A stretch of 64,000 bases of DNA from a virus. The number at the start of each line of letters is the position of its first letter. Positions within the stretch are counted from its first letter, which is position 1. Of the stretch, positions 22,365-63,379 are shown piece by piece. The notes under the pieces are model-generated. The model did no database searches. It was not told where the DNA came from and worked only from the letters and a program-made list of their open reading frames with translations. The DNA lies in IMG/VR virus record IMGVR_UViG_3300022916_000006, positions 32,001 through 96,000 of that record. One strand, given 5' to 3'. The position numbers were made by a program, and so were the translations under genes.

Positions 22365-24115
22365 AAATAACAACAGTGAATACATTAGACTTTGATTTAT
22401 TAGAAATCATAAAGGATAAATCAAATAGAGTAATTGATGGAGTGAATCATGGTAGAATTACTTACTATGATCGTATAAGGGATCGATATATAAAGATATT
22501 TGATGAGGACTACTGTAGACTATCATATTTTAAGAACGCTATTAAATGTGGATATTATGATACATTAGCTCCAGCACTATCATCGGTCATATTTGATAAT
22601 GGCAATATAATTGGTTATATAACGAATGCTGGTAAAGTGTTAAATGATTTAAATCTATTAAAAGAATATGAAAATAAAATAATTGATGTATGTGATGCAA
22701 GTGGATTATTTTATTATGATTTAGTTCCAGAAAATGTAATACAATTACCAAATGGTGAGTTAAGCTTAATTGATTTGGATGGTGTATATGATATTTCAGA
22801 TTACAGTTTGATGAATTCACATAATGCAGAAATCAAACCAAATACATTAAAAAAATATATACAACAAAAATGGAGTGATAAATATATGAAGCCAATTAGT
22901 TTTATAATACCAAGCAGAACAAATCTAAAATATTTAAAACAAGCATATAATTCAATAAGACAAAATCTACATCCAATGCATGAAATTTGTATTGCCGATG
23001 ATGCTTCAACAGATGATACTTGGAAGTGGTTGACTGAAAAAGTCAAAACAGATGTTAATTTAAAATTATATAAAAATGAAGGTCCAGATAGATTAGGTCA
23101 CACAATATTATATGATACATTGGTGAATGAAATATCAACAAAGGATATTATCTGTATATTTCATGCTGATATGTATGCATGTAAAGGATTAGATGATGAG
23201 TTTATTAAATATCTAAAGCCAAGTGTAGTTGTGTCAGGTACTCGAATTGAACCACCATTACATCCAGACGGTCCTGAAAAGATAATAAAAGATTTTGGAA
23301 TAGAACCAGAAGAATTTAAAGAAAGTGAATTAAACGATTTTGTTGAAAATTTAAAAAATCAACATAGAACCAAATTAACAAATGGTATATTTGCACCCTG
23401 GGCTATGTATAAAGATGACTTTCAATCAATTCATGGACACGATCCATTATATGCCCCACAATCAAAAGAAGATTCGGACATCTTTAATAAGATGCATCTT
23501 GCTGGATATGATTTTATTCAGACTTGGAATGGTTTTGTATATCATATGACATGTCGTGGAAGTAGATTTGCTGATGGTGCAAAGAGAAATCCAAATGGTG
23601 AAGTATTTATGAAAAATCGTGAGACTGATGAATGGTTGACTCAGAATAAAAAATCACATAGAAACTTCATTCGTAAATGGAGCTCAACGGTATTACATGA
23701 TGCATATTTGAAACCAATAGTAAAGAATAAATATAATATTGGATTAGTAATATCAAATGCTAACTATGAATTAATTGAAATACTTGAACCATTCTTTGCA
23801 ACATTATATGTAGATTGTGATTTTAAAATATATGTTGACAATGAACAACCAAACACATTATATTCAATGATGGATAGAGTACAGAATATTGATGTTACAC
23901 CACATAATGATATTGTTGTAGAATTCGATGCATCAAAATTAACAAATGAATTGCTCAATGAATTCTTGATAAAATTATCAGATGTGATTGCAGATTCTGG
24001 TGAAATTGGTGAGTTCGAATATGAGATATTTAAAATAAAAATAAAAAGTGTTTCATCATATCAAAAAGATTTATTATATTATGATAACAATATAATCAAT
24101 AAAAGAGCGTTTTAA
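22361..24115 (+). CDS. kinase-like domain fused to glycosyltransferase family 2
   Basis: N-term YIKIF...YYDLVPENVI...LIDLDG; then MKPISFIIPSR, IADDAS, FHADMY, SKEDSD, VYHMTCRG. Confidence 0.75.
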   Translation: MKITTVNTLDFDLLEIIKDKSNRVIDGVNHGRITYYDRIRDRYIKIFDEDYCRLSYFKNAIKCGYYDTLAPALSSVIFDNGNIIGYITNAGKVLNDLNLLKEYENKIIDVCDASGLFYYDLVPENVIQLPNGELSLIDLDGVYDISDYSLMNSHNAEIKPNTLKKYIQQKWSDKYMKPISFIIPSRTNLKYLKQAYNSIRQNLHPMHEICIADDASTDDTWKWLTEKVKTDVNLKLYKNEGPDRLGHTILYDTLVNEISTKDIICIFHADMYACKGLDDEFIKYLKPSVVVSGTRIEPPLHPDGPEKIIKDFGIEPEEFKESELNDFVENLKNQHRTKLTNGIFAPWAMYKDDFQSIHGHDPLYAPQSKEDSDIFNKMHLAGYDFIQTWNGFVYHMTCRGSRFADGAKRNPNGEVFMKNRETDEWLTQNKKSHRNFIRKWSSTVLHDAYLKPIVKNKYNIGLVISNANYELIEILEPFFATLYVDCDFKIYVDNEQPNTLYSMMDRVQNIDVTPHNDIVVEFDASKLTNELLNEFLIKLSDVIADSGEIGEFEYEIFKIKIKSVSSYQKDLLYYDNNIINKRAF

Positions 24116-24390
24116 TGAAATATCCATGTTATATAGTCAAGATGAAGTCAACCAACAATATGGCGTTTAGTTGTAGTCCAGCATATTTAACCAAAGCATC
24201 AACAGGTGTTGTGACTGGTAAAATATGGATAGATTCTAATATTAATGATGCTATTAGATTTGAAAGAAACGTAGATATAAAAAACTTACATAAACATGAA
24301 ATTCCAATTAATTTATCAATATTAGTGGCTAAATATGGCGAACCAATGAAAATAAATTCAGAAGCTGAATGGGTAGCAATGATGTTATGA
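24115..24390 (+). CDS. MKYY..ELVAYLL-family small protein, unit 1
   Basis: MKYPCYIV / NSEAEWVAMML. Confidence 0.8.
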   Translation: MKYPCYIVKMKSTNNMAFSCSPAYLTKASTGVVTGKIWIDSNINDAIRFERNVDIKNLHKHEIPINLSILVAKYGEPMKINSEAEWVAMML

Positions 24391-24605
24391 AATATTATAT
24401 GATATATGATCCAGGTATGAGTGCCACCGAATTAAAATTTGTTTTTTATAATAGAGCATTGACTGTTTATAAATATACAACTGACTTTAGCAATAGTGAT
24501 ATTGTAGTATCAGATTCTAGAGATAAATTAAATAGTAATAGTGGTAAACGTTGGGGAAATGTTAAAGTATTTTCTGAAAATGAAATTATACCATATATAT
24601 TGTAA
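24387..24605 (+). CDS. MKYY..ELVAYLL-family small protein, unit 2
   Basis: MKYYMIY / FSENEIIPYIL; start moved to the coupled ATG. Confidence 0.8.
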   Translation: MKYYMIYDPGMSATELKFVFYNRALTVYKYTTDFSNSDIVVSDSRDKLNSNSGKRWGNVKVFSENEIIPYIL

Positions 24606-24610
24606 AACAT

Positions 24611-24835
24611 ATGAAATATTATATTATAAGACCCAAGACAGATATAAAAAATCCATATATTGCCCAAATGTCTAAGAATGATTATTATGCTACCCGTAAT
24701 GTTGAAGACATTGTATCATTTAAAACCAAGTCTGAAGCTCAAAGAGTGATAGCACATGAAAGTATGAGGTATCCTGAGTTCTGGTGTGATGCTTATGTGA
24801 TAGATGAAAATGAACTGATACCCCATCTGTTATGA
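24611..24835 (+). CDS. MKYY..ELVAYLL-family small protein, unit 3
   Basis: MKYYIIR / IDENELIPHLL. Confidence 0.85.
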   Translation: MKYYIIRPKTDIKNPYIAQMSKNDYYATRNVEDIVSFKTKSEAQRVIAHESMRYPEFWCDAYVIDENELIPHLL

Positions 24836-25062
24836 AATATTATATTATACGAATAAGTGATAATGAAAACCATTACAAATATGTTATGACAAGTGGATCA
24901 GGGTTACATTATGGGGCATCACCAGACTATACAAGGATAACAGCATTCAAGTCCAAAACACAAGCACAAAACATAATAACTGCAGGCTGTAAACGTGATA
25001 TGAATTTTTGGCATGATATGGTGGTAGTAAATGAGAATGAATTGGTTGCACATATTTTATGA
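24832..25062 (+). CDS. MKYY..ELVAYLL-family small protein, unit 4
   Basis: MKYYIIR / VNENELVAHIL. Confidence 0.85.
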   Translation: MKYYIIRISDNENHYKYVMTSGSGLHYGASPDYTRITAFKSKTQAQNIITAGCKRDMNFWHDMVVVNENELVAHIL

Positions 25063-25313
25063 AACGTTATTATATTGTATGGAAATATGTTGATATTGAT
25101 AAGAGTTCAGTTGGAAATTGGCTCTGGCATTATGCTTACATGCGTAAGTATGTAATTGATGATGAACATGATGTTTTTTATTGGACATTTAATATAAATG
25201 AAGCACGGGTTTTTAATTATAAACTTTATGCTAAATGGTACATGTGGAGTCGAAAACGAACAGCTCATATGTGTATATTATCAGAACAAGAATTAGTATT
25301 GAAATTATTATGA
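25059..25313 (+). CDS. MKYY..ELVAYLL-family small protein, unit 5
   Basis: MKRYYIV / LSEQELVLKLL. Confidence 0.85.
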   Translation: MKRYYIVWKYVDIDKSSVGNWLWHYAYMRKYVIDDEHDVFYWTFNINEARVFNYKLYAKWYMWSRKRTAHMCILSEQELVLKLL

Positions 25314-25522
25314 ACAAATATTATATTGTATATCGTGTTAGTAGCTCAAATGAGTACGTATATAGAGGATCGAATGGGTGGTTGAGTACAACAAATGATA
25401 GAAAAATTATACCATATGAATCATATGAACATGCTATGGTGGATTATGTTGGGTTGCATTGGGATATAGCGGATAACACATCAATAATGGATGAAATTGA
25501 ATTGCTTGCTAAATTATTATGA
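25310..25522 (+). CDS. MKYY..ELVAYLL-family small protein, unit 6
   Basis: MNKYYIV / MDEIELLAKLL; start moved to the coupled ATG. Confidence 0.8.
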   Translation: MNKYYIVYRVSSSNEYVYRGSNGWLSTTNDRKIIPYESYEHAMVDYVGLHWDIADNTSIMDEIELLAKLL

Positions 25523-25833
25523 ACAAAACGCTCAAACCAAGAATATATCCATATTATGTATTAAGATTAAAAGATGGTAAAAAAGGATATGCATCTCAAG
25601 TACATCATCGTAAAACATCTCACATATTTAGACGACAATTTGGATCATTTAAACAAACAGTCAAGCGACCTAAGATAATACATTCAGTGGATATGTTGGA
25701 AGCTCATAAATTTAAAACCTTTATTGAAGCATATGCTATGTGCAATATTAGTGTGAAATGGACCAATGAAGATAGTTTATATGATATAATTAAAATATCA
25801 GATGAAGCATGTGAAATGGTATATTTATTATGA
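25519..25833 (+). CDS. MKYY..ELVAYLL-family small protein, unit 7 (divergent)
   Basis: YPYYVLR / SDEACEMVYLL. Confidence 0.7.
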   Translation: MNKTLKPRIYPYYVLRLKDGKKGYASQVHHRKTSHIFRRQFGSFKQTVKRPKIIHSVDMLEAHKFKTFIEAYAMCNISVKWTNEDSLYDIIKISDEACEMVYLL

Positions 25834-26072
25834 AACATTATATAATATATAAAGATGAAAGAGATAGTGGATATGTTCAATATGATATTACGGCAAATTC
25901 TTATGAATTAACTAAAAATATTAATAATATTATTGGATTTGATTCCAAAAGAAAAGCACAATTTATGATTACAGAGAGAATTAATTATTGTATTAAGCGT
26001 GGGTATAATTATCACTTCTGGAGTTATGTAACAATAGTGACAGAAAGTGAATTGGTTGCATATTTATTATGA
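25830..26072 (+). CDS. MKYY..ELVAYLL-family small protein, unit 8
   Basis: MKHYIIY / VTESELVAYLL. Confidence 0.85.
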   Translation: MKHYIIYKDERDSGYVQYDITANSYELTKNINNIIGFDSKRKAQFMITERINYCIKRGYNYHFWSYVTIVTESELVAYLL

Positions 26073-26311
26073 AATATTATATTATAGCAATAAAGGGTGA
26101 TACAACATATTACAGATCATATTTCTTAAGGAGACATGAAGATATATATTCATACTGGTCAATAAAATTTAAAAAAGCAATAGAATTTATATCTAGGGAT
26201 GAAGCAACTAAGTTTACAAAAACTCATAGCTATAAATATACAGTTGGTGTACCATCTATGAGTGATCTTAAAATTGTATCAGAAACTGAATTAGTTGCAT
26301 ATTTATTATAG
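26069..26311 (+). CDS. MKYY..ELVAYLL-family small protein, unit 9
   Basis: MKYYIIA / VSETELVAYLL. Confidence 0.85.
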   Translation: MKYYIIAIKGDTTYYRSYFLRRHEDIYSYWSIKFKKAIEFISRDEATKFTKTHSYKYTVGVPSMSDLKIVSETELVAYLL

Positions 26312-28143: not shown

Positions 28144-29271
28144 ATGAGAATAATCAAAACGACTGAATATGCTACCATACTGGAATTGTGCTACACTGCA
28201 AAACAGCCACTATTTATACAAGGTGGACCTGGAGTTGGTAAGAGTGAAATTCCACGACAAGTATTTTCTGAAATCGCTAAACGAGATAAACTTGAATTTG
28301 TCGAATGGGACAAATGCTCAAATGAGAAGAAGGCTAATTTATTTGTTAATCCAGATAAATATTTTGTATTTTGTGATCAGAGATTATCACAAATGGATAC
28401 GACTGATTTAGGTGGGCTACCAATGCCAAGTGAAGCAAAAGATCGACTGTTGAAAATTCCACAAGCGTGGATTGTTTATTTTTGTGATCAAAAATCAAAT
28501 GGTGTTATTTTCTTTGATGAAATTAACTTAGCACCACCTGTTGTTACTGGATCAGCATATCAGATCATTCTTGATAGATCAATGTCTGACATGAAATTAT
28601 CCGATAATGTTTATGTGATGGCTGCTGGAAATAGATCAGAAGATCAAGCGTTCACACATCAAATGCCATTGCCACTACGTGACCGATTTAATGAAATTGA
28701 AATACGACCTGATAAGAAATCTTGGGTTAGTTGGGCATCTAAAAATGGTGTGAATCCTCACTTGATTGCATTCATTAACTGGAAAGAAAGTTATCTATAC
28801 AAAGTTGATCAAAACGCATCAAATAAAAGTGTAACTCCTCGTGGTATTGTTCGGGCATCACATTTGCTTGGTGATTTGAATTTCTTGGGAAGTGTATCGA
28901 ATACAAAGAAAGCAAGATTGTATCTTGATATTTCTGTTGGTGAAGGATTCTCACAAGAGTTCATGGCTTACATCAAATATTACAAAAAACTCAAATGGGA
29001 TACTATTTACAAAAACCCAAAAGAAGCACTTGCTAAACTTGAACGAAATGAAATCTTTGCTGTTACTGGTGGATTGATTGAACATTACATGGGAACTAAA
29101 TACAGCACTGATCAAATCATCAATGTCATTAAGTACTTGGGATCAGAATTCTCAATCATGACACTACGAATGATTAAAGATACTGATGAAGCTAAATTTA
29201 TGAAAGTTGCATTGAAGAATAAAACTTTCATCTCTGAAATCACTGACGATATTAAAAAATACTTACTATAA
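28144..29271 (+). CDS. MoxR-type AAA+ ATPase
   Basis: GGPGVGKS (Walker A), VIFFDEIN (Walker B), MAAGNR, PLRDRF, TPRG. Confidence 0.9.
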   Translation: MRIIKTTEYATILELCYTAKQPLFIQGGPGVGKSEIPRQVFSEIAKRDKLEFVEWDKCSNEKKANLFVNPDKYFVFCDQRLSQMDTTDLGGLPMPSEAKDRLLKIPQAWIVYFCDQKSNGVIFFDEINLAPPVVTGSAYQIILDRSMSDMKLSDNVYVMAAGNRSEDQAFTHQMPLPLRDRFNEIEIRPDKKSWVSWASKNGVNPHLIAFINWKESYLYKVDQNASNKSVTPRGIVRASHLLGDLNFLGSVSNTKKARLYLDISVGEGFSQEFMAYIKYYKKLKWDTIYKNPKEALAKLERNEIFAVTGGLIEHYMGTKYSTDQIINVIKYLGSEFSIMTLRMIKDTDEAKFMKVALKNKTFISEITDDIKKYLL

Positions 29272-29304
29272 ATTTTAATATCAAAAAGCAAAAAGGAGAA
29301 GTGA

Positions 29305-30600
29305 GTGAGTAGTAATAATACAAGTCACACGTTAAATGCTGAAGACAGATTGCTTCGTGGTAAAATTAAACTACAACGTGAACAGCCATTTTATGCATAT
29401 CTATTACTGGGGTTGGAATGTGTTAAAAACAATAAAATTCCAACTGCTGGTGTTGATATGGGAAGACACATGTATTACAATGAGAAGTGGGTTCAAAACT
29501 TATCTGATGAACATTTAAAGTTTGTCCTATGTCATGAAATCTTACATGTTGTGTTGTGTCATTTGATTCGTGGTGGAACTAGAAAACATCGTTTATTTAA
29601 TATTGCGGCTGATATAGTTATAAATGCTATGTTGGTTGAAGATGGATTTTCTACACCACCAGACGTAATTCAAATTGTTGATAACAGATGGGAATACAAA
29701 GACGCAAAAGGCAAAAAACATTACATTGACAAGTGCTCAGAAAAATCATCAGAAGAAGTATATGATGAACTTCAAAAGATTTCTGAAGATATGGATGAAC
29801 GAGATGCACATTATAAATGTGATGGTAATTGTCAACCTGGTGATGGTGATGGTCAGTGTAAAGGTGGTGGTGAATGTACTTGTGGTAATGAATTTGGTGA
29901 TGTTGATCAATTTGATGAACACATGAGAGAATCAGGAATGTCACAAGATGAAATCGATGAAGCCAAAGAGGAGTTCAGAAGACAAATGGTTGAAGCCGCT
30001 ACCCATGCAAAAAGTAGAGGCAACATGCCAGGATCAATGAAACGAATCTTAGATGATTTGTTAAACCCTCAACTTGATTGGAAAACATTATTATATAATT
30101 ATATCACAAAAGATATAATATATGATTTCACAATGAAACGCCCAGGTAGAAGAAGCTTTGCGGCAGGAGTATATCTACCAACCGTATTGAGAGAAAATCT
30201 TGATATTGATATTACAATTGATACATCTGGTTCAATTGGTGCAGAAGAATATAAGTCATTCATGAGTGAAGTGATTGGTATTGCAAATGCATTTGAAAGT
30301 ATCAAAATGAACATTATCTTTTGGGATACTCAAGTTAGAGAACCAATTGAAAAAGTTACAATGGGAAACAAAGAGCATTTGTTAAAAATGACACCAAAAG
30401 GTGGTGGTGGAACTACAATGTCATGTCTTGGTAAATACTATGAAGGTAAACAATTACCAAAATTGATTGTCACCCTAACAGACGGATATGTTGAATGTAA
30501 TCCTAAATTACCAATGGGTGTACAACATCTGTTTGTGCTATCAAAAGATAGCTCAGATGAACAGCTTAAAGGTCTTGGAGTCATAACCAAGTTAAAATGA
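29305..30600 (+). CDS. HEXXH metallopeptidase + VWA-like domain protein (DUF2201-like)
   Basis: TAGVD, LCHEILHV, FNIAADIVIN, IDTSGS (MIDAS), GGGGT, TLTDGY. Confidence 0.9.
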   Translation: MSSNNTSHTLNAEDRLLRGKIKLQREQPFYAYLLLGLECVKNNKIPTAGVDMGRHMYYNEKWVQNLSDEHLKFVLCHEILHVVLCHLIRGGTRKHRLFNIAADIVINAMLVEDGFSTPPDVIQIVDNRWEYKDAKGKKHYIDKCSEKSSEEVYDELQKISEDMDERDAHYKCDGNCQPGDGDGQCKGGGECTCGNEFGDVDQFDEHMRESGMSQDEIDEAKEEFRRQMVEAATHAKSRGNMPGSMKRILDDLLNPQLDWKTLLYNYITKDIIYDFTMKRPGRRSFAAGVYLPTVLRENLDIDITIDTSGSIGAEEYKSFMSEVIGIANAFESIKMNIIFWDTQVREPIEKVTMGNKEHLLKMTPKGGGGTTMSCLGKYYEGKQLPKLIVTLTDGYVECNPKLPMGVQHLFVLSKDSSDEQLKGLGVITKLK

Positions 30601-30953: not shown

Positions 30954-30964
30954 TATAAAATTAC

Positions 30965-30994
30965 TTGATAGATGTTATGATTTAATCGTAATTT
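30965..30994 (+). promoter_or_regulatory. early-type promoter
   Basis: TTGATA-N18-TAATTT then TAAGTAGTTATG. Confidence 0.65.
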
Positions 30995-31039
30995 TAAGTA
31001 GTTATGACAGATAAGAATTAAACAAAGGATAAAAATAAA

Positions 31040-31243
31040 ATGAATGAAATCACAGTACATTATTGGCATGGTACAAAATATGAAGATATCAATTTTAATC
31101 ATGGAGCAGTGTTTCCGTATACAGTTCGCAAACGAAATCAAATTATTAATGCAGTTCAAAATGCTGGAAAATCAATCATGTTAAGACCATCTGGTGATAG
31201 CTTACAGATATGGATTGATGATGGTATGTTTAGGCAGAGGTAG
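31040..31243 (+). CDS. hypothetical protein
   Basis: First ORF after the promoter, AAGGA upstream. Confidence 0.6.
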   Translation: MNEITVHYWHGTKYEDINFNHGAVFPYTVRKRNQIINAVQNAGKSIMLRPSGDSLQIWIDDGMFRQR

Positions 31244-31246
31244 ATT

Positions 31247-31681
31247 ATGAAAAACGATATAAGAAATGCCACAAGAGGAACACCATCAGAGATTAAACTG
31301 GTGCTATATACTCAACTTGGTATTATCGGATTATTGATGCTTGTTATATTTAAAATATCTGGTATTTTTACTGTTATATTTGGTGCAATAAGTGTGTATA
31401 TGGCGTTCGATGCATTGGTAATAATCATTAATGCAATATCTCAAAATAAAACAACTCCATCACATTCTAAAAATATATTTGATGATAGAGTTAGAGACTG
31501 TTATACTACAGGCATATCTAATAATACATTTTGGGTTATGACTTGGAGTAAAGTATTTATACTTCTATTTGCTGGTTGGTATTTTTATGCTGTTCTATGG
31601 TTAATCATTGGATGGGTGCATACTGAAGTTCGAAATACTGCAATTGAAAAATATGTCACAAAAACAAATAAAGGTAAATGA
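31247..31681 (+). CDS. membrane protein
   Basis: Several hydrophobic segments. Confidence 0.6.
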   Translation: MKNDIRNATRGTPSEIKLVLYTQLGIIGLLMLVIFKISGIFTVIFGAISVYMAFDALVIIINAISQNKTTPSHSKNIFDDRVRDCYTTGISNNTFWVMTWSKVFILLFAGWYFYAVLWLIIGWVHTEVRNTAIEKYVTKTNKGK

Positions 31682-31685
31682 TATT

Positions 31686-32108
31686 ATGAAAGCTCGCTTA
31701 GTAACAAATCACGCTGTAGATTTTATATTAACTGCATTATTAATAACATTAATTGGTGCATTTGTGATATCAATGTTTGCTGGTGATCCAGATGATTCTG
31801 TATATGCTAATAGTCCTGAAACCATTTTACAACCAACAACACCAACAGATGTAAATGTGGTCACATATGATATGTCAATTGAAGTGACAAGACATAATGG
31901 TGATGTTGATACATTATCATATTCACATAGTACTAATAAATTATGGATTGATGGAAAAGGTGATCGTACATATTTAATGACATCATATCCAGAATCAGAA
32001 ATTAACATTAAATACAATACTGATGAAAATGGTAAAACTGATACTTTATATTATGATCGAGTAGTATCATATGATGTTAAATCATATAGGATTCTATCAG
32101 CTGAATGA
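31686..32108 (+). CDS. membrane-anchored hypothetical protein
   Basis: N-terminal TM (FILTALLITLIGAFVISMFA); start moved to ATG 31686. Confidence 0.6.
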   Translation: MKARLVTNHAVDFILTALLITLIGAFVISMFAGDPDDSVYANSPETILQPTTPTDVNVVTYDMSIEVTRHNGDVDTLSYSHSTNKLWIDGKGDRTYLMTSYPESEINIKYNTDENGKTDTLYYDRVVSYDVKSYRILSAE

Positions 32109-32401
32109 TACGTTATTATATTTTAGGAACCCATATTAATGGTAATGCTCCTGCTGGTATATATCTTGGTGATAACTTTTCAAGAGATACATATGGTAAT
32201 GGAATAAGATGGAGTAAATTATCAACATGCCCATCTACTGTAGGTGATGTATCATTTAGTGCTGGATCATATCATATATTTAAAAATGAACATACAGCAC
32301 AACAAAAATTAAATATGTTATTAAAACAAAAAAAGTTGAATATAGATGCTTATAGTTTTAAAGTTATTTCAGACTCAGAGATGGTAGCATTAATATTATG
32401 A
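32105..32401 (+). CDS. MKYY..ELVAYLL-family small protein, unit 10
   Basis: MIRYYIL / ISDSEMVALIL. Confidence 0.8.
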   Translation: MIRYYILGTHINGNAPAGIYLGDNFSRDTYGNGIRWSKLSTCPSTVGDVSFSAGSYHIFKNEHTAQQKLNMLLKQKKLNIDAYSFKVISDSEMVALIL

Positions 32402-53521: not shown

Positions 53522-53794
53522 ATGACACGTAAAAATTATTATATATATTATCAATGGAATGCACCAGGAGCATATCCACAACATCGATATTGTGGAATGC
53601 ATGGTAAATGGTTAGTTGGTTGTTATTCTGATAATCTAATTGAACCGTTTTCAAAAAAGAAACATGCACAAAAAGCACTTAATCGATATAAAAGAAATGT
53701 AATAAATGGTGGTCCACAGGCTGAATATAAATATGGTTGGTCAGCAAACGCCAGAGTAATATCAGAAGCAGAAATAATTGCAATACTCTTATGA
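53522..53794 (+). CDS. MKYY..ELVAYLL-family small protein, unit 74
   Basis: MTRKNYYIY / ISEAEIIAILL. Confidence 0.85.
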   Translation: MTRKNYYIYYQWNAPGAYPQHRYCGMHGKWLVGCYSDNLIEPFSKKKHAQKALNRYKRNVINGGPQAEYKYGWSANARVISEAEIIAILL

Positions 53795-54045
53795 AACACT
53801 ATTTAGTAGCAATACCAAAAAATTATAACAACAACGTATTATGTGTTTTTATTCAATCCGATGGTTGTAAAAAAATTAAACTACCACAAGGTTGGGTGGT
53901 TGCACGAGATGTAACTACTATAATGTTGGATAATACAAATATGACAGACGGTGAGTTACATCAGGTGAGTAAACAATATTCATCCGTACCAGTACATGAA
54001 ATAAAGATTGTAACTGAAGCAGAGTTGATGGCATTGTTGTTATGA
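53791..54045 (+). CDS. MKYY..ELVAYLL-family small protein, unit 75
   Basis: MKHYLV / VTEAELMALLL. Confidence 0.85.
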   Translation: MKHYLVAIPKNYNNNVLCVFIQSDGCKKIKLPQGWVVARDVTTIMLDNTNMTDGELHQVSKQYSSVPVHEIKIVTEAELMALLL

Positions 54046-54182
54046 AGTGGATTATAAGATCAAAAGAACGTGTTAATAATAGAGTACTTTATTATGGTCA
54101 TATTGGATCACACAGTCGTTGGATTAGTATCGCAATTGGCCTCTATAGAGACCCATCATTGAAAATTGCAACACTATTATGA
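54042..54182 (+). CDS. MKYY..ELVAYLL-family, unit 76 (46 aa, internally deleted; not in ORF track)
   Basis: MKWIIRSKERVNNRVLYYGHIGSHSRWISIAIGLYRDPSLKIATLL, ATGA-coupled at both ends. Confidence 0.65.
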   Translation: MKWIIRSKERVNNRVLYYGHIGSHSRWISIAIGLYRDPSLKIATLL

Positions 54183-54448
54183 AATTTTATATATACGATA
54201 AACAAGATAAAGATTTTGCTGGTATATATGATGAAAATATATTATCTAAATATATATCTCATGATTCAGAAATGGTATCTTGGTGTCATATAAAACATGT
54301 TGATAAATTAACACCATTCAATTCATATAAAGATGCAAATGAGTTTGTGAAGTGGTATTCGGACATATATCTAGGAAATGATGATGATGCGGCTCGGCAC
54401 CAATTTAAAATTATAACAGAAACAGAATTGTTGGTGATGGTATTATGA
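54179..54448 (+). CDS. MKYY..ELVAYLL-family small protein, unit 77
   Basis: MKFYIY / ITETELLVMVL. Confidence 0.85.
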   Translation: MKFYIYDKQDKDFAGIYDENILSKYISHDSEMVSWCHIKHVDKLTPFNSYKDANEFVKWYSDIYLGNDDDAARHQFKIITETELLVMVL

Positions 54449-54672
54449 AAGAAAAATATTATATAATATATGCATTTGATGAATGTTGGGAAAGATTGCC
54501 AATGTATGATTGGAAGAACGAGAATGAGAATAATTACAAATGTAATGAAGATGATTCATTCACAACTCACGCTGAAGCGTTTCATGTTGTGCAATCAAAA
54601 TGGAAATCATTATTTAGAAGTAAGAGAATAAAAATTGTAACTGAATCAGAATATATTGCAACGATATTGTGA
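54445..54672 (+). CDS. MKYY..ELVAYLL-family small protein, unit 78
   Basis: MKEKYYII / VTESEYIATIL. Confidence 0.85.
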   Translation: MKEKYYIIYAFDECWERLPMYDWKNENENNYKCNEDDSFTTHAEAFHVVQSKWKSLFRSKRIKIVTESEYIATIL

Positions 54673-54679
54673 TGAACAT

Positions 54680-54892
54680 ATGAAATACTATATATATTAT
54701 AAAGCTGATAGTTTTGGTGATCAATGGATTTTAGATAAACATAGGTGGTCATTGATTGAGACGATTGGTAGAAGAGGATTAACACCATTTGATACTCATA
54801 ATGAAGCAGAGATACGACTTCGTGAAGCAGTAGAGTTATATGGTGAATCATACGTTATAACTGAATCAGAATTAGTGGTGATGCTGTTATGA
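54680..54892 (+). CDS. MKYY..ELVAYLL-family small protein, unit 79
   Basis: MKYYIY / ITESELVVMLL. Confidence 0.85.
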   Translation: MKYYIYYKADSFGDQWILDKHRWSLIETIGRRGLTPFDTHNEAEIRLREAVELYGESYVITESELVVMLL

Positions 54893-55113
54893 CACGTTAT
54901 TATTTATATGACCCAGTAGATAAACACATAACTGGTAAAGATGGTGGTTGGCGAAGTGATTATAATTTAGTAAAACCATATAACACTAAACTAGGGGCTG
55001 ATCTACATGTAGAGAGATTGCATATTGTTTTTCCAAACGTTGAATGGATAAATCGTGTTGAAATTATAACAGAAGAACAATTAATGGCAATTAAAGTCAT
55101 AGAGGAACTATGA
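54889..55113 (+). CDS. MKYY..ELVAYLL-family small protein, unit 80 (long-tail type)
   Basis: MTRYYLY / TEEQLMAIKVIEEL. Confidence 0.8.
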   Translation: MTRYYLYDPVDKHITGKDGGWRSDYNLVKPYNTKLGADLHVERLHIVFPNVEWINRVEIITEEQLMAIKVIEEL

Positions 55114-55352
55114 ATCCTTATTATATAATAATTGATGAGGAGTATGAACAATACGCATTTGTATCTGGATATGACGTTAGACCAGGGCAGAGCTATTTAA
55201 CTTATACTGACATTATAGAAGATGCGTATGAATTCGTATCGAAGCACTCAGCTGAAGAAGTATTACGTAAATTGCGTAAAGAATATGCTTATTATAATAT
55301 GGTAGATCATACCATTGTATCGGAAGCTGAGTTAGTAGCACTGGCATTATAA
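55110..55352 (+). CDS. MKYY..ELVAYLL-family small protein, unit 81
   Basis: MNPYYII / VSEAELVALAL. Confidence 0.85.
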   Translation: MNPYYIIIDEEYEQYAFVSGYDVRPGQSYLTYTDIIEDAYEFVSKHSAEEVLRKLRKEYAYYNMVDHTIVSEAELVALAL

Positions 55353-55368
55353 ATACTAAATATAATGG

Positions 55369-55398
55369 TTGCATCGTATTATATTTAATATCTAATTT
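55369..55398 (+). promoter_or_regulatory. early-type promoter
   Basis: TTGCAT-N18-TAATTT then CAATAGTTATGAGACACAC. Confidence 0.75.
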
Positions 55399-55442
55399 TC
55401 AATAGTTATGAGACACACAAATCACACAATTGGAGAAAACTT

Positions 55443-55634
55443 ATGATAATGAATACAATGATGGCAGTTAAACTGCATAAAACAATCAACTCAATGCATG
55501 TACCAAGAGTACGAAAAAATGTTGATTCACCTTCCACTCTCATATGGTTGAGAGACAATTTAAAACTTAAAAACAAATCACACCCAAAATTAAACGAAGC
55601 ACTAAACATCGTTAAATTATTATTATCAGCATAA
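55443..55634 (+). CDS. hypothetical protein
   Basis: GGAG SD upstream; 63 aa. Confidence 0.55.
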   Translation: MIMNTMMAVKLHKTINSMHVPRVRKNVDSPSTLIWLRDNLKLKNKSHPKLNEALNIVKLLLSA

Positions 55635-55651
55635 ATAAAGAATAAACACAC

Positions 55652-55882
55652 ATGGAAAATAATGAAAACAATGAAAATAATTATTATATCTACATTGAAG
55701 AATGGAATGATATACTGGATGCCGATGGACAGTTTTTTAATCTAGATAGGGATAAAGACACCTTAGATGAAATCGTACCATTTACATCATATAGTAGCGT
55801 TTGTGCAGTACGCAAAGAAGCATACGCTGTGCAGGAATCCACAATACTTACTGAGGCCGAATTTGTTGCATTAGTGTTATGA
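55652..55882 (+). CDS. MKYY..ELVAYLL-family small protein, unit 82
   Basis: MENNENNENNYYIY / LTEAEFVALVL. Confidence 0.85.
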   Translation: MENNENNENNYYIYIEEWNDILDADGQFFNLDRDKDTLDEIVPFTSYSSVCAVRKEAYAVQESTILTEAEFVALVL

Positions 55883-56061
55883 AAAACAAAATACAAATAA
55901 AAGATATGTGTTTCAATTGTAATAAAATCATTGATGTATGTATTTGTGATCAACCAATTACTGACATACAAGAATATTATAATCATATTCAAAGTAAAAC
56001 AAAAGTTGATACAGAAGAATATAGACTATATTTAAAATTGAAAAATAAATTCAGTGAGTAA
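55879..56061 (+). CDS. small Cys-rich hypothetical protein
   Basis: CFNC...CIC; ATGA-coupled. Confidence 0.55.
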   Translation: MKNKIQIKDMCFNCNKIIDVCICDQPITDIQEYYNHIQSKTKVDTEEYRLYLKLKNKFSE

Positions 56062-56296
56062 TAATCTAAATTATTATATCGAATATTTGGATATAAATAC
56101 GCTTAGTTATACACAACCAATGTATATACGTAGTACTGCTGTAATGTCTGATCGTATAACCGATGCTCGTATGTTTGATACTGAATTACAAGCTATTGCA
56201 TATCGACTTGTATTATATCGAAATGATATGGTTGAAAGATGTAGATGTACAATTAAATCAATATCAGATGTTGAATTGGTTGCATTGCATTTATGA
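56054..56296 (+). CDS. MKYY..ELVAYLL-family small protein, unit 83
   Basis: MSNNLNYYIE / ISDVELVALHL. Confidence 0.8.
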   Translation: MSNNLNYYIEYLDINTLSYTQPMYIRSTAVMSDRITDARMFDTELQAIAYRLVLYRNDMVERCRCTIKSISDVELVALHL

Positions 56297-56538
56297 AATA
56301 TTATATCACAAATATTAATACCGTTCATGGTGAACCAGCTACACTTTATTTAGTATATGTAAATGGTGAACATTTTTGGTCAACATTTATGACAAATGCA
56401 CTACATTTTAAATCAGCACATGATGCAAATTTATTTATTTTATTTTATAATCATAATCGCTCTAGTAAACATAAAAAAGTTAATTATAGTGAATATATAA
56501 TACAATCAGAAGCTGAATTGATAGCTCGTATATTATGA
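56293..56538 (+). CDS. MKYY..ELVAYLL-family small protein, unit 84
   Basis: MKYYIT / QSEAELIARIL. Confidence 0.85.
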   Translation: MKYYITNINTVHGEPATLYLVYVNGEHFWSTFMTNALHFKSAHDANLFILFYNHNRSSKHKKVNYSEYIIQSEAELIARIL

Positions 56539-56783
56539 GTCCAGAATATATATTCTATCTATATTATGATTCAGGTACGCTACACAGACATAAATATATA
56601 TCCGATATAAATCGTGAAAATAATGATATAACTATAAGCATGCGTTTTAATGATTCTATGATATTTGATACGTGGGTGGATGCTTGGAATACTCGATCAT
56701 ATATTTTAAGTGTTGGTAGATTACGTGATAATATATCAGTTAAAAAAATGTTATTAGCAGAGTATTTAATAAAAATATTATAA
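56535..56783 (+). CDS. MKYY..ELVAYLL-family small protein, unit 85 (divergent)
   Basis: MSPEYIFYL / MLLAEYLIKIL. Confidence 0.7.
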   Translation: MSPEYIFYLYYDSGTLHRHKYISDINRENNDITISMRFNDSMIFDTWVDAWNTRSYILSVGRLRDNISVKKMLLAEYLIKIL

Positions 56784-56797
56784 ATTTAAAATAATTG

Positions 56798-56827
56798 TTG
56801 TTTCACGTTATATTTTTTTCTTAACTT
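56798..56827 (+). promoter_or_regulatory. early-type promoter
   Basis: TTGTTT-N18-TAACTT then TAAGCAGTTATGAGAG. Confidence 0.75.
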
Positions 56828-56854
56828 TAAGCAGTTATGAGAGGACACAAACAC

Positions 56855-59233
56855 ATGAGAAGAACAAATTTTATTTCGAACTTAATCCCACAATTCGACA
56901 ATACATTAGGTACAGATTCAAAACTACAAGATATCATGTACAAAGCTAATGCATTGAAACTAATCAAAAATTTTGTAAATGTTATATCAGATAAAACTGC
57001 CATTGTAAAGTTCAATACTACTGATGGAGCTGGTGGTGGTCGTGCATCAATAACAGATAATGGTGAATATCAAGTATATATAAGTGGTAAACTAACAAAA
57101 TCTACTTTTGATCATCATGTTGGTCTTGCACTACATGAAGCATCACATCTAAGATACTCAGATATGGATTATCTTAAAAAAGTAATGGCACATGCACGAT
57201 ATAAGGAACTTGATCCACAATACATAACATCAGAAATGTACACTGATGCACTTATCAAACTAGGTGTTCGTAGATCACAATTAACTGGTGCATATAAATC
57301 AATTGTTAATATAATTGAAGATCGTAGAATCGACACGTTAACATTTGAAGATGCTCCAGGATATCGAATGTACTATGAAGCATTATATAAAAAGTTTTAT
57401 AGAAGTGCAATAGTGAACACTATGTTAAAATCATCAAAATATCGAGATGAAACACTTCAAAGTTATGTCGGTAGATTTTGTTATTTGATTAATAAAAATA
57501 CTGATCTAAGTGCATTGAAAGAATTAAGTACAATAAATGATATGCTTGATATATCAAACATCACTAGACTTGATACTCCAGAAAAATTATTTAAACTTGG
57601 TACTGATATTTTAAATCATATATTAACTTCATTATTCACAACTAAAGAAGAGGAAGAAAAAAAAGAAGCAGAGTTGAATAACGAATCAGATGAAAATGAA
57701 TCAGATGAAAACGAATCAGATGAAAATGAATCAGATGAAAATGAATCAGATGAAAATGAATCAGATGAAAACGAATCAGATGAAAACGAATCAGATGAAA
57801 ATGAATCAGATGAAAATGATGATGATGATGAAAATGAATCAGATGAAAATGAATCAGATGAAAACGAATCAGATGAAAATGAATCAGATGAAAACGAATC
57901 AGATGAAAATGATGATGATGAAAATGATGATGATGAAAATGATGATGATGAAAATGATGATGATGATGAAAATGATGATGATGAAAATGATGATGATGAA
58001 AATGATGATGATGATGAAAATGATGATGATGATGATGATGAAAATGATGATGATGATGATGATGATGGAACTGAATCAGATGAAAATGAATCAGATGAAA
58101 ATGAATCAGATGATGATGGTGATGATGAACTTGAAGATTTAACTCCAAAAGAGGAAAAGAGTTTATACAGATCAATGAAAAAAATGGCTGGGTTTGTACA
58201 TGATACACTTCAAAAACCAACAATGTCAGAAGGAAATGCAACAGCAATAACAGCATTTTCAAAAACAAAATCTACTGAGTTAATATCTTCATTTTCAGAT
58301 ATTCAGATACTTGAGATTGATGATATAAAAGCTACATCAGAAATGTCAAAAGTATTTCCATTTCTATCTCAACATAAACCATCAAGATATGTTGATGCAG
58401 TTGCACAGGGATTTATATCTGGAAAACAACTATCAAAAAAATTATCAATAATCAATGATGATAAAACTACTATTAGAATGAGAACAAAACACGGAAATAT
58501 CAGTCGAAGATTATTATCAAGTGCATCATTCAACTCTAATATATTTGATCAGAAAGTTACACAAGTATATGGTAATAGTTATATTCACATATCACTTGAT
58601 GGTAGTGGTTCAATGTCTGGTTCAAGATGGGTCAGTGCTTTGACTACAGCAACAGCAATTGCAGTTGCATGTGATATAGTTGGTAAATCTCATGTTGAAA
58701 TCGCAATACGAACGCAAATGGATAATTCACCAGTAAGTGCTATCGTATATAATTCAAACGTAGATAAGATTTCAAAACTTAAAAATATACTTCCAATGAT
58801 TACTCTTGATAGTTATACTCCAGAAGGATTATGTTTCGAATCATCAATGAATAGAATGATGTTAAATTCTAAAAAATCTCACAATTCATATTTTATTAAT
58901 GTATCTGATGGTGAACCTTATGGTTGTTATCGTACAAATACACTATCTCTAATGAAACGAACTGCAACTAGCAGATCAAATATGGATTCTACAACTTCAG
59001 TATTTAATGGAAGAAATGCTTTAGATTTTACAAAAAAACAAGTTGACACAATTAAAAGTCATGGATTTAAAGTACTGAGTTATTTTGTGACTAGTGGGAA
59101 ATCGGATGGTGGTGTTGATGATATGAAAGATATGTTCACTCATATGTATGGTAAAGATGCATTTTTTGGTGATGTCAAATCTACCATTATTCTTGCTAAA
59201 AGTCTTAACAACATGATCATTGGTAATAAATAA
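56855..59233 (+). CDS. CobT-like protein: HEXXH metallopeptidase domain, acidic repeat linker, VWA domain
   Basis: LALHEASHLRYS, VNIIEDRRID, Asp/Glu repeat linker, ISLDGSGSM (MIDAS), TPEG, NVSDGEP. Confidence 0.85.
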   Translation: MRRTNFISNLIPQFDNTLGTDSKLQDIMYKANALKLIKNFVNVISDKTAIVKFNTTDGAGGGRASITDNGEYQVYISGKLTKSTFDHHVGLALHEASHLRYSDMDYLKKVMAHARYKELDPQYITSEMYTDALIKLGVRRSQLTGAYKSIVNIIEDRRIDTLTFEDAPGYRMYYEALYKKFYRSAIVNTMLKSSKYRDETLQSYVGRFCYLINKNTDLSALKELSTINDMLDISNITRLDTPEKLFKLGTDILNHILTSLFTTKEEEEKKEAELNNESDENESDENESDENESDENESDENESDENESDENESDENESDENDDDDENESDENESDENESDENESDENESDENDDDENDDDENDDDENDDDDENDDDENDDDENDDDDENDDDDDDENDDDDDDDGTESDENESDENESDDDGDDELEDLTPKEEKSLYRSMKKMAGFVHDTLQKPTMSEGNATAITAFSKTKSTELISSFSDIQILEIDDIKATSEMSKVFPFLSQHKPSRYVDAVAQGFISGKQLSKKLSIINDDKTTIRMRTKHGNISRRLLSSASFNSNIFDQKVTQVYGNSYIHISLDGSGSMSGSRWVSALTTATAIAVACDIVGKSHVEIAIRTQMDNSPVSAIVYNSNVDKISKLKNILPMITLDSYTPEGLCFESSMNRMMLNSKKSHNSYFINVSDGEPYGCYRTNTLSLMKRTATSRSNMDSTTSVFNGRNALDFTKKQVDTIKSHGFKVLSYFVTSGKSDGGVDDMKDMFTHMYGKDAFFGDVKSTIILAKSLNNMIIGNK
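57680..58130 (+). repeat. 15-bp tandem repeats encoding ESDEN and DDDEN
   Basis: (GAATCAGATGAAAAY)n and (GATGATGATGAAAAT)n. Confidence 0.95.
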
Positions 59234-59511: not shown

Positions 59512-60639
59512 ATGATTTTACGACCAGAATTAAGAGGAACCAACACAACAGTATTAGTTGATGTAGATACTAACGAAATTGTAAAGAAAACTGCACTGTT
59601 TACTTACCAAAAAAGACGTGCATATAAAAGTAATATGTTGATTGATTGGAATGGTAAATTCAATAAAGAAAAACGATTTGCATACATTCCAAATGCAGAC
59701 GCCCCATCATTTGTGACTCCAACATCGAACGAACCTACAAAACTTTCACCAGTAAAAAAAGTATTATCTACTGTTAATTTTAACAATGTACCAAAACCAA
59801 AACATTATATAATCAATGATTTGAAATGGAAATTTTTAGCACGTACTGTTCTCACTGGTAGAAATGCTATGTTGCGTGGTGATCGTGGTTGTGGTAAAAC
59901 AATGGGTGCTGAAGCAATTGCAATCGCAACCAACAGACCATTTTTTAATATCAATCTTGGTTCTACTCAAGACCCAAAATCAACATTGATTGGTAACACT
60001 CATTATGATACTGACTCAGGTACATATTTCAAACCAAGTTATTTTGTTCAAGCTATTCAAACACCAAATGCTGTGATTCTATTAGATGAATTATCGAGAG
60101 CTAATCCAGAAGCATGGAATATCTTGATGTCAGTTTTAGATTTGAAACAAAGATATTTAAGACTTGATGATGCTGTTGATTGTGATACAGTTAAAGTTGC
60201 AGATGGTGTTTCATTCATCGCAACTGCAAATGTTGGAACTAAATATACATCAACAAATATTATGGATGATGCATTGATTGATAGGTTCGGAATTCTCGAA
60301 CTTGATTTACTTGATGTTAGTGGTGAAATGAAATTAATGAATATGTTATTTGGTAACAGTGATGGATTACATGATGATTATAAAAAGATTGCAAAGTTTG
60401 CGGCACTGAGTAGAACACAAGCATTGTTAGATTCAGTTATCATTGATGTTGGAATTTCAACTAGAACATCAGTTGAAATGGGTCACTTGATTGCCGATGG
60501 ATTTTCATTCATGGATGCGGCAGAAATCATGATCTACCCTCAGTATGATAATGATGGTGGTGTTGAGAGTGAACGTAACTTCGTCAAAGTCATGTTGCAG
60601 AAGTTCAATAGTGACGGGTCAGATGCTACGTTATTTTAA
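59512..60639 (+). CDS. MoxR/CobS/CbbQ-type AAA+ ATPase
   Basis: GDRGCGKT (Walker A), ILLDELSRA (Walker B), FIATAN, DDALIDRF, ISTR. Confidence 0.9.
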   Translation: MILRPELRGTNTTVLVDVDTNEIVKKTALFTYQKRRAYKSNMLIDWNGKFNKEKRFAYIPNADAPSFVTPTSNEPTKLSPVKKVLSTVNFNNVPKPKHYIINDLKWKFLARTVLTGRNAMLRGDRGCGKTMGAEAIAIATNRPFFNINLGSTQDPKSTLIGNTHYDTDSGTYFKPSYFVQAIQTPNAVILLDELSRANPEAWNILMSVLDLKQRYLRLDDAVDCDTVKVADGVSFIATANVGTKYTSTNIMDDALIDRFGILELDLLDVSGEMKLMNMLFGNSDGLHDDYKKIAKFAALSRTQALLDSVIIDVGISTRTSVEMGHLIADGFSFMDAAEIMIYPQYDNDGGVESERNFVKVMLQKFNSDGSDATLF

Positions 60640-62234: not shown

Positions 62235-62569
62235 ATAAGATAAAAAAGTTTTATGATAATTTTAGAATTCGTATCTGTACACCAAATACTACATACGCTA
62301 CACTTGGTAAAACCACAATTGATAAAAAGGAAATATTTGAATGGGTTGAGATATTGGTAAGTGGAACTTTTATGATAATCCTTTTATTTTTAACATTTAA
62401 AGCATTAGAAATGCAATCAATAAATGCTCACAACGGTAAAGTTGCATATTTTGAGAATAGACTTGACAGTTTATCGGTTGAGGCAGAAAAGCTTGAAAGT
62501 TCAATAGTACGTGAAATGGATAGTCTAAGAATAATTATAAAAAATAATCAAACATTAATAACTATATAA
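62231..62569 (+). CDS. membrane protein with coiled-coil tail
   Basis: Central TM (ILVSGTFMIILLFLTF). Confidence 0.6.
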   Translation: MNKIKKFYDNFRIRICTPNTTYATLGKTTIDKKEIFEWVEILVSGTFMIILLFLTFKALEMQSINAHNGKVAYFENRLDSLSVEAEKLESSIVREMDSLRIIIKNNQTLITI

Positions 62570-62584
62570 TCGTTAACAAAATAA

Positions 62585-62833
62585 GTGAAATATTATATAA
62601 AATTTATGGAAAATAATTTACTATCTGGTTTTGTAATGCCAGGAAAGTTAGAGGATATTCCCATTCATAGGGGCATATCAGATGATCCTAAATTTGCTGA
62701 AGCATTCACATTAAAATGGAAAGCACAACATCTATCAGATGAAATAAATGCAGACAACCTAGAACATGGTATAACTCGTAAGACTAAATGTATTGTAATA
62801 ACAGAAACAGAATTGATTGCACTTATATTGTGA
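62585..62833 (+). CDS. MKYY..ELVAYLL-family small protein, unit 86
   Basis: MKYYIK / ITETELIALIL. Confidence 0.85.
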   Translation: MKYYIKFMENNLLSGFVMPGKLEDIPIHRGISDDPKFAEAFTLKWKAQHLSDEINADNLEHGITRKTKCIVITETELIALIL

Positions 62834-62840
62834 CGATCAT

Positions 62841-63131
62841 ATGAAATATTATTGTATTATACGATTGGGACCAAAACGATTATCATATTTAGATATGCAT
62901 TGGAGATTTAGGCAGGTTACTACCGATGGAACGGTTGATTATGCCATAAGAACGTTTTATACAGCTGAATATGCTGAAGAGCGAAAATCCAGAATTATAC
63001 GACGATCTGTATTTAGACAAAAGAAAAGAAATCGAAATCGAGATAAAACGCATCGTTGTGTTAAAATTCCAAACTTAAAAGTGATATGTATGGATGAACT
63101 ATCAGCATATAAAGTTGCATATATATTATGA
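62841..63131 (+). CDS. MKYY..ELVAYLL-family small protein, unit 87
   Basis: MKYYCII / MDELSAYKVAYIL. Confidence 0.8.
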   Translation: MKYYCIIRLGPKRLSYLDMHWRFRQVTTDGTVDYAIRTFYTAEYAEERKSRIIRRSVFRQKKRNRNRDKTHRCVKIPNLKVICMDELSAYKVAYIL

Positions 63132-63379
63132 AATATTATGTAGTAACTCCACCTGGTTGTAGACTATGGTATGTGCGTGGTATTATTAATCACAGATTCG
63201 TTTGGGTTGACGATATTAAAGATGCTATATCATTTAAAACTGCTCGTGATGGATGGAAGTTTACAGAACAAGCGGATAGAGGTGAGGGTAATCATAAATG
63301 GAATCGACAAATTCATAATCACTATTTTACTAAACGGGTTGTTATGTCTGGTGCAGAATTAATAATTAGAGAATTGTAA
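63128..63379 (+). CDS. MKYY..ELVAYLL-family small protein, unit 88
   Basis: MKYYVV / MSGAELIIREL. Confidence 0.8.
   Translation: MKYYVVTPPGCRLWYVRGIINHRFVWVDDIKDAISFKTARDGWKFTEQADRGEGNHKWNRQIHNHYFTKRVVMSGAELIIREL

Follow-up and report, generated by a model that had tools for sequence, protein, structure and literature searches.

A family of about a hundred strongly diverged small genes, arranged in runs of overlapping genes, in a large uncultured phage

Large uncultured phages hold much unexplained DNA. We analyzed a window of 64,000 nucleotides (nt), bases 32001-96000 of the linear 118,745-bp viral contig IMGVR_UViG_3300022916_000006 (GC 30%), and found that it encodes a real, selected and very large multigene family, in which 88 small genes built on one scaffold lie head to tail in seven coupled runs. 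Together with the members detected downstream in the contig and in a second contig that continues it, the phage carries about 105-108 copies. Structure models show each gene to encode a single compact alpha/beta domain, to which the constant ends of the proteins belong. Tentatively, and giving it a little less than an even chance, we read the array as a very large, old and lineage-specific expansion of one small cytoplasmic domain whose variants would bind or inhibit host proteins.

A family of small genes in head-to-tail runs

A hidden Markov model (HMM) seeded with 32 strict units and iterated to convergence over all open reading frames (ORFs) of at least 40 amino acids (aa) on both strands of the contig retrieved 94 members at E < 1e-3 (best 2e-20), all on the + strand; among the minus-strand ORFs the best E value was 0.3. 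The window holds 85 solid members (E 2e-20 to 2e-5) and 9 more lie downstream in the contig. Three further window ORFs, at 25519, 54042 and 56535, are marginal, truncated or degenerate members and bring the total to 88 in seven runs. An earlier reading of the letters alone (the sequence-only reading) had counted about 88 small ORFs in seven runs, and ORF listing together with the iterated HMM recovered the same counts (85 solid and 3 marginal). A separate six-frame search of the contig with the family alignment gave 93 matches. The 94 contig members are spread over 17 runs or singletons, the longest with 29 in a row, and their 22.8 kb of DNA amount to 19% of the contig; within the span 24115-63379 the family fills 52%. 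The members within the window are as follows (positions are those of the window unless stated otherwise).

22080-22364, + strand: outlying, very divergent possible member of 94 aa (HMM E = 0.013), with PFYII near the N-terminus, A-x-K-F-A-T-K-E-x-A and the end ...VAQLL
24115-26311, + strand: run 1, nine family genes, eight of them solid; 25519-25833 is marginal by HMM, with the motifs present
32105-33976, + strand: run 2, seven family genes, two with a longer variant tail (...E-x-x-L-x-x-x-V-x-E-L)
34330-41051, + strand: run 3, with 29 family genes packed into 6.7 kb; ATGA overlaps join nearly all of them, no terminator-like site inside
44190-45221, + strand: run 4, four family genes, preceded by a block of non-family small genes (41873-44065)
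46139-52245, + strand: run 5, 24 family genes by HMM
50410-50820: gene of run 5 with a 51-aa N-terminal extension ahead of an internal MKYYIYDP
53501-56783, + strand: run 6, ten solid members, a truncated unit (54042-54182), a degenerate last unit (56535-56783) and small non-family ORFs at 55443 and 55879
62585-63379, + strand: run 7, three family genes by HMM

The truncated unit of run 6, an ORF of 46 aa, starts with MKW and ends with ...KIATLL while its middle is missing, and is probably a family member with an internal deletion.

The contig is continued by a 57.5-kb IMG/VR contig (G001), in which two 127-nt stretches are 100% identical to parts of the last 1.4 kb of the contig and which then runs on past it, giving ~176 kb of known sequence for this phage. 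G001 adds 11-14 members. Nine members are placed 2.5-5.5 kb further on past the shared stretch, and five form a mini-array (L003:9214-10451) on the + strand, opposite to its neighbours, between a minus-strand gene for a 2136-aa tail fibre and a gene for an SbcC-like nuclease, indicating that the arrays are not limited to one region of the genome. Three other proteins with canonical ends (P0003, P0053 and P0076) occur in public data and are absent from both contigs, which makes it probable that strains of the phage differ by gained or lost units.

The sequence-only reading had itself raised the possibility of an assembly artefact. The exact sequence of one member recurs on 29 contigs in the three repositories JGI, Logan and ENA (up to 126.8 kb in length; family proteins are also carried by contigs of 111 and 106 kb), and the units are too diverged for an assembler to collapse or expand them, which together argue against such an artefact. 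By our own arithmetic, random DNA of 30% GC contains ~8% stop codons and leaves a frame of 80 codons open with a probability near 0.001; given that the units nevertheless tile the strand, a chance origin of the open frames is excluded.

Overlapping genes and promoter-like elements

Overlaps of 4 nt of the ATGA type were found at 63 of the 77 adjacent family-family junctions; TGA is the stop codon in 82 of the 94 members, and an ATG or GTG overlaps the stop in 82 of 94. Start codons, overlaps and a weak ribosome-binding bias have been retained. Because of the ATGA overlaps the runs look like long translationally coupled operons, and the simplest reading is that these operons make dozens of variants together: each run would be transcribed as a single long mRNA and translated by coupling, so that its variants would be produced at the same time. 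Terminator-like sites in two scanned 20-kb regions showed no excess over shuffled sequence (5 versus 4.0 and 5 versus 4.9), and none lay inside runs 2 and 3. A generic sigma-70 scan of the same two regions gave no more sites than the shuffles and was uninformative.

A conserved element of ~48 nt, which we call class B, consists of TTGnnT, about 18 nt and TAAnTTTAAGnAGTT, often leads straight into an ATG, and reads as a sigma-70-type -35/-10 pair. Seven copies at E < 0.01 (nhmmer) and several weaker ones were found, all on the + strand and solely in the array-rich region, where the typical position of a copy is in front of the non-family 'leader' genes, one or a few in number, with which a run opens. 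The early-type promoters proposed in the sequence-only reading thus stand as far as a conserved sigma-70-like element ahead of runs is concerned; nothing marks the element as 'early'. The following copies and one leader gene bear on this.

30957-31004, + strand: class B element (nhmmer E = 4.6e-7, also matched by regular expression), ahead of non-family genes 31040-32108 and run 2
33984-34031, + strand: class B element (E = 2.1e-7), followed by the leader gene 34036-34329
34036-34329: Cys-rich leader gene of 97 aa, with a weak match to zf-RING_5 (E = 0.006)
41825-41874, + strand: class B element (E = 2.1e-9), the strongest promoter-like copy, at the end of an 821-nt gap
52244-52292, + strand: class B element (E = 3.7e-9), ahead of leaders 52292-53074 and 53087-53425 and run 6
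56789-56837, + strand: class B element (E = 1.3e-7), ahead of a 798-aa gene

The gap in question (41052-41872), which is non-coding and follows run 3, also contains direct repeats (41607-41643/41680-41716 and 41416/41447) and three weak class B copies. Further weak class B sites, at 45308 and 45707, lie near direct repeats between runs 4 and 5, where a poorly coding stretch (45503-45622) carries two pairs of exact direct repeats of 20-31 nt spaced by 60 and 73 nt. Another repeated promoter-like element, TTGACTTGCGACTTTTACCCTATATTTAT as part of a block of at least 50 nt, occurs at window 767-795 and at genome positions 11747 and 99870, upstream of larger genes outside the arrays, which suggests that the phage has at least two classes of promoter.

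Predicted fold of the family members

The members are 60-110 aa long (mean 80) and share the columns M-K-Y-Y-I-(I/V), one Tyr, one Trp, F-x-(S/T)-x3-A and (I/V)-(V/I)-(S/T)-E-x-E-L-(V/I)-A-x-(L/I/M)-L-stop, whereas the remaining alignment columns are near background and four loops vary freely in length. The constant start, middle and end described in the sequence-only reading hold by column counts over up to 94 members: M 81/83, K 84/91, Y 73/92 and Y 82/93 at the start; Trp 71/88, Phe 71/94, S/T 76/94 and Ala 79/94 in the middle; and, in the tail, the two Glu in 73/94 and 80/94 and a last Leu in 86/94. In about nine members, among them the one at 32727, the tail is a longer variant that ends in ...V-x-x-E-L. 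Isoelectric points (pI) range from 4.1 to 10.2, with 47 members below 6, and net charges from -13 to +14. No conserved basic patch and no conserved Cys column or CxxC pattern was seen among the 94 members, of which 38 contain no Cys at all, and no match to a Pfam zinc ribbon was obtained.

AlphaFold2 modelled the member at 37188, with the family alignment, at a mean predicted local distance difference test score (pLDDT) of 86.8 and a predicted template-modelling score (pTM) of 0.74, placing strands at residues 3-7, 16-24, 33-39 and 71-75 and helices at 51-59, 65-68 and 76-83. The member at 48785, from the most atypical subfamily modelled and devoid of the F-x-S-x3-A motif, gave a pLDDT of 83.0 and the same order of elements; both models were built on one shared family alignment. 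ESMFold, in the ESM Atlas, folds one member from its single sequence (pTM 0.79). The models thus show each gene to encode one compact alpha/beta domain of the predicted order beta1, beta2, beta3, helix, beta4 and C-terminal helix. The N-terminal strand and the C-terminal helix are the most confident parts (pLDDT 91-97), indicating that the constant ends belong to one domain, as its strand 1 (KYYIV) and as its beta4 with the final helix. The C-terminal helix is the most conserved segment and is retained in the run-terminal genes. Conservation falls on aromatic or aliphatic residues of the core and on the S/T-E-x-E at the start of the helix, which looks like an ordinary helix capping box. The view of one scaffold with hypervariable surfaces, already put forward from the letters, agrees with the common element order of the two models and with the spread of pI. 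A homodimer prediction with two copies and the family alignment scored 0.00 and bears neither way on self-association.

Relatives of the family

Scans of the 85 window members against Pfam, PHROGs and NCBIfam found no recurrent family, a profile search of the PDB had T4 gp53 as its best match (E = 0.56) and Foldseek on the PDB gave no match at E <= 0.001; in these four collections no relative was found, in line with the sequence-only reading, which had recognised no named family. A Foldseek-type search of BFVD gave weak matches to unnamed small phage proteins (best E 2.4e-3, template-modelling (TM) score 0.64). VIA-align of both models against 48,161 chains remained below a meaningful level, its best scores being Z 4.2 for the neck protein of phage 812 and 3.5 for the ATfaRel2 antitoxin; a small chain from an anti-CRISPR study (8g9s_A), at Z 3.7 and 2.5, is likewise below that level. 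The clusters closest to the family in the ESM Atlas consist of unnamed viral proteins, and the nearest named ones (DUF2849 and others) score below 0.9. At the nucleotide level, run 3 had no blastn match in 50,697 phage records. Searches of IMG/VR with single members led only to G001 and to one unrelated phage, which has a single distant copy, and two metagenome scans for relatives were empty.

The family profile run against 1.84 billion representative proteins gave 94 matches at E <= 0.001, of which 61 belong to the contig itself, while several more represent strain variants or are encoded in G001. The remaining matches are of two kinds. The first are single small genes in other phage fragments, such as P0073, present in one copy in contigs of 25-28% GC, which has the MKYYI start and an F-K-S-x-x-D-A motif and is without the E-L-V-A-x-L-L tail. 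The second are long unnamed metagenomic proteins of 272-1207 aa (P0005, P0052, P0069, P0075, P0078, P0086 and P0087), in which profile positions ~3-71 are repeated 3-7 times in tandem without the C-terminal helix. Given that the distant homologues match only positions ~3-71, the C-terminal helix is a lineage-specific addition. The core domain, found in other phages and in metagenomic repeat proteins, is therefore wider than this phage, while the hundredfold expansion is lineage-specific. These matches point to a wider, uncatalogued domain family, which could now be defined.

Conservation acts on the protein

A logo of the junctions shows codon periodicity, with 1.1-2.0 bits at codon position 2 and 0.2-0.8 at position 3. 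Pooled over 21 independent closest pairs, nonsynonymous (dN) and synonymous (dS) divergence were 0.18 and 1.04 in the core columns (ratio 0.17) and 0.89 and 1.03 in the variable columns (ratio 0.86); the choice of core columns is circular for dN and not for dS. Over whole genes, the closest pairs have dN/dS of 0.26-0.7. Since dS is equal in core and variable columns, the ends are held neither by gene conversion nor by a DNA motif, and run-terminal genes with no family gene downstream still carry the tail. Judged from these patterns of substitution, conservation acts on the protein. The idea that the constant ends are part of a shared fold, also advanced in the sequence-only reading, gains from both lines of evidence, namely their place in the core of the models and the low dN/dS of the core positions.

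A nucleic-acid constraint at the junctions is real but secondary. The overlapping ATG imposes TTA-TGA as last codon and stop, and G-ending codons are favoured for the Leu that stands 6 residues and the Val that stands 5 residues before the end (TTG 42% versus 18-24%; GTG 43% versus 18-20%), yielding a GGTGG-like stretch ~10 nt ahead of the next start.

Divergence and turnover of the units

Pairwise identity between members averages 21% and reaches at most 51% within the contig (66% to a copy in G001), in line with the first impression that no two units are near-identical. Subfamilies of 2-13 members can be defined, and they are interleaved across runs. Adjacent units were no more alike than distant ones (rank distance versus similarity, rho -0.06), and collinear pairs of similar neighbours, the mark of segmental duplication, were not significantly in excess (18 versus 13.9 +/- 4.7 expected, p = 0.2). 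Repeated exact 16-mers are ninefold enriched at the junctions: 37% of their occurrences fall within 25 nt of a unit stop, a zone that makes up 4% of the contig, and some pairs of junctions have 25-28 identical bases in common. This microhomology is a plausible substrate for unequal or ectopic recombination, by which units could be gained, lost and reordered. The presence of one truncated and two degenerate units suggests birth-and-death turnover. No reverse transcriptase (RVT_1) of a diversity-generating retroelement was found in the 118.7-kb contig, a search that detected the control genomes and that leaves the rest of the phage genome outside its reach.

Possible functions of the family

The reading that we hold, with the reserve stated at the outset, is that of a co-expressed repertoire of specific intracellular binders or inhibitors, whose variants would act with different specificities against host proteins in host takeover or counter-defence. 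It is drawn from several properties in combination: the domains are small and cytoplasmic and have no catalytic motifs, their core is rigid while surfaces and loop lengths are free of constraint, the variants are apparently co-expressed, and ~100 diverged copies have been retained. Four points weigh against it. Known anti-defence proteins are usually unrelated singletons and not one family of 100. The dS of about 1 is near saturation. The variable columns evolve near neutrality, which is as compatible with relaxed constraint as with diversifying selection. Finally, the common fold of the two AlphaFold2 models is not fully independent evidence, since one family alignment served for both.

Near-neutral variable columns, together with the one truncated and two degenerate units, would also be expected if the array were a genomic accordion, in which tandem duplicates fill a larger headful capsid and are kept mainly as DNA length, the proteins having little individual function; a ratchet of this kind has been proposed for phages G and 121Q, which have arrays of more than 30 genes (PMC5646251). 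We consider this explanation unlikely. About 105 frames are open despite saturated dS (~1) and a random stop-codon frequency of 8%, the core columns have a dN/dS of 0.17, filler DNA would not keep a fold, and the start codons, overlaps and weak ribosome-binding bias have been maintained. Saturated divergence with every copy still open and foldable marks a selected repertoire and not junk.

Also unlikely, in our estimate, is that a constant N- or C-terminal segment serves as a shared tag that addresses ~100 proteins to one place or machine, whether as a capsid-targeting signal, as a degron or as a helix that docks on a chaperone or protease. The C-terminal helix is the segment that would fit best, being the most conserved, absent from the distant homologues and kept by run-terminal genes, and two MoxR-type AAA+ ATPases and a VWA/metallopeptidase (DUF2201) protein are encoded between the runs (positions below). 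Both ends are, however, modelled at the highest confidence as packed parts of the domain rather than as free peptides, and the conserved S/T-E-x-E would be accounted for by helix capping.

An AP2- or Arm-type or similar nucleic-acid-binding module, the paralogs being regulators or genome-coating proteins with differing sequence preferences, is improbable. The W ... F-x-T-x-x-E-A pattern resembles the strand-helix motif of the Arm type; the metagenomic repeat protein P0083 matches both the family profile and Pfam Arm-DNA-bind_4 (41 bits), which is an indirect link; structure neighbours in the Atlas include a domain fused to phage HNH endonucleases (TM 0.59-0.63); and roles of this sort have been suggested for the zinc ribbons of phage G by Iyer et al. 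(PMC7824862). Against this, the Arm and AP2 models matched none of the 85 members even with the threshold relaxed to E = 1, no AP2 or integrase arm domain was among the structures that matched at Z >= 2, and half of the members are acidic, with no basic patch in common.

Conservation of the ends as nucleic acid, with the ~35-nt junction being a DNA or RNA element for recombination or translation coupling and the amino-acid motif its by-product, would suit the fixed TTA-TGA, the G-ending codons and the concentration of repeated k-mers at junctions, but is very improbable in view of third positions that are otherwise free, second positions that hold the information, a core-codon dS equal to that elsewhere and a motif kept by run-terminal genes. 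We give as little weight to a germline-encoded adaptor library, in which the variable faces would be directed at different host proteins (for instance polymorphic defence or toxin components of many host strains) and the invariant C-terminal helix would dock all of them on one machine, for example the MoxR-type AAA+/VWA-metallopeptidase pair or a host protease, that would remodel or destroy the targets.

If the members bind host proteins specifically, they would form a natural library on a stable scaffold of 60-110 residues and a route to host targets that are important in infection. If they are not binders, the array is still a clean case of how a phage builds and keeps a multigene family through coupled operons and junction microhomology.

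Comparison with other phage and viral gene families

Stretches of small, fast-changing genes are also a feature of the hyperplastic regions of large T4-type phages, to which the sequence-only reading had likened the array. Those regions contain unrelated ORFans, each with its own promoter and stem-loop, and short conserved boundaries have been proposed to mediate their shuffling; Arbiol and colleagues reportedly described this in 2010 as the shuffling of promoter-early stem-loop (PeSL) cassettes. Here, in contrast, all units are homologous and ATGA-overlapping, with one upstream promoter-like element per run. Given that no promoter or stem-loop cassettes lie between the units, the analogy does not fit.

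The internal proteins of T4 (IPI, IPII and IPIII) are likewise small and variable with a short constant N-terminal segment, which in their case is a cleaved capsid-targeting peptide; there are few per genome, and IPI* is an anti-restriction factor. In the family described here the N-terminus is modelled as a core beta-strand (pLDDT ~91) and there are ~100 copies. Large eukaryotic DNA viruses multiply one scaffold in tandem, after which the copies diverge, as in the MGF110/360/505 families of African swine fever virus (ASFV), the amplification of poxvirus K3L and the ankyrin/BTB/MORN expansions of giant viruses ('genomic accordions'). This much is similar, whereas the genes of those families are separately transcribed and have partly known roles in immune evasion, and the present ones belong to a virus of bacteria and form coupled operons by the reading given above. 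As regards the arrays of immunity genes that accompany polymorphic toxins, no toxin-like neighbour was seen among the flanking genes scanned, most of which are without annotation.

The closest precedents are in large phages. Hua et al. (2017, PMC5646251) report tandem arrays of more than 30 similar genes in two jumbo phages, G and 121Q, and propose that tandem duplication is one way in which jumbo genomes arise. Bacillus phage G also has ~35 zinc-ribbon proteins, an expansion termed 'unprecedented' by Iyer et al. (2021, PMC7824862), who suggest specific binder or transcription-factor roles for them. Tens of head-to-tail paralogous small genes in a large phage are common to our array and those of G and 121Q; theirs are 'very similar', while ours average 21% identity with saturated synonymous sites, number ~105-108 and belong to another protein family. 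With the zinc ribbons the present family shares the multiplication of a single small domain within one phage lineage, and it differs in having no zinc ribbon, a roughly threefold higher copy number and an alpha/beta fold without a solved relative. The array therefore belongs to a known kind, the tandem paralog expansions of phages, and stands apart in scale, in divergence or age, in its coupled-operon architecture and in its protein family. The statement in the sequence-only reading that no example of such copy number is known needs qualifying in the light of these arrays of more than 30 genes, although the present one is about three times larger. One undescribed small domain thus occupies ~19% of a 119-kb contig, at some three times the copy number that was called 'unprecedented' in a phage.

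Genomic surroundings and host

CheckV puts the completeness of the contig at 62%, corresponding to a whole genome of ~190 kb of an uncultured large bacterial virus. Essentially all genes of the contig are on the + strand. Sugar and nucleotide-sugar enzymes are encoded in the first 24 kb of the window, and the remainder is devoted mostly to the small-protein family. Scans of the window for tRNA genes and Rfam families gave no match. The nearest match of a glycosyltransferase is to a Flavobacterium phage (42% identity), which hints at a host among the Bacteroidota. Shine-Dalgarno-like motifs, which are rare in Bacteroidota, occur 4-18 nt upstream of 58% of 57 large + strand genes (control windows 4-11%), so that a host in this phylum looks doubtful. 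The neighbours of the family include the following.

Just downstream of the possible member at 22080-22364: glycosyltransferase-like gene of 584 aa
26968-27498: HNH endonuclease
28144-30600: MoxR-type AAA+ ATPase (AAA_5) adjoining the DUF2201 metallopeptidase/VWA protein, between family runs
56837-59233: the 798-aa gene (phrog_1576), with matches only to PHROGs of unknown function
59512-60639: second AAA_5/CbbQ-like ATPase, between family runs

A search for relatives of the DUF2201 protein found none. At the end of the contig, beyond the window, the two 127-nt stretches shared with G001 stand 1.1 kb apart (contig 117501-118618), whereas G001 joins them directly, indicating that the contig has a 1.1-kb insertion that is missing from the G001 assembly; the insertion holds an ORF of 318 aa (117666-118622). 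Within the 798-aa gene, positions 57680-58100 consist of long repeats with a 15-nt period that code for an extremely acidic segment rich in Asn, Glu, Ser and Asp.

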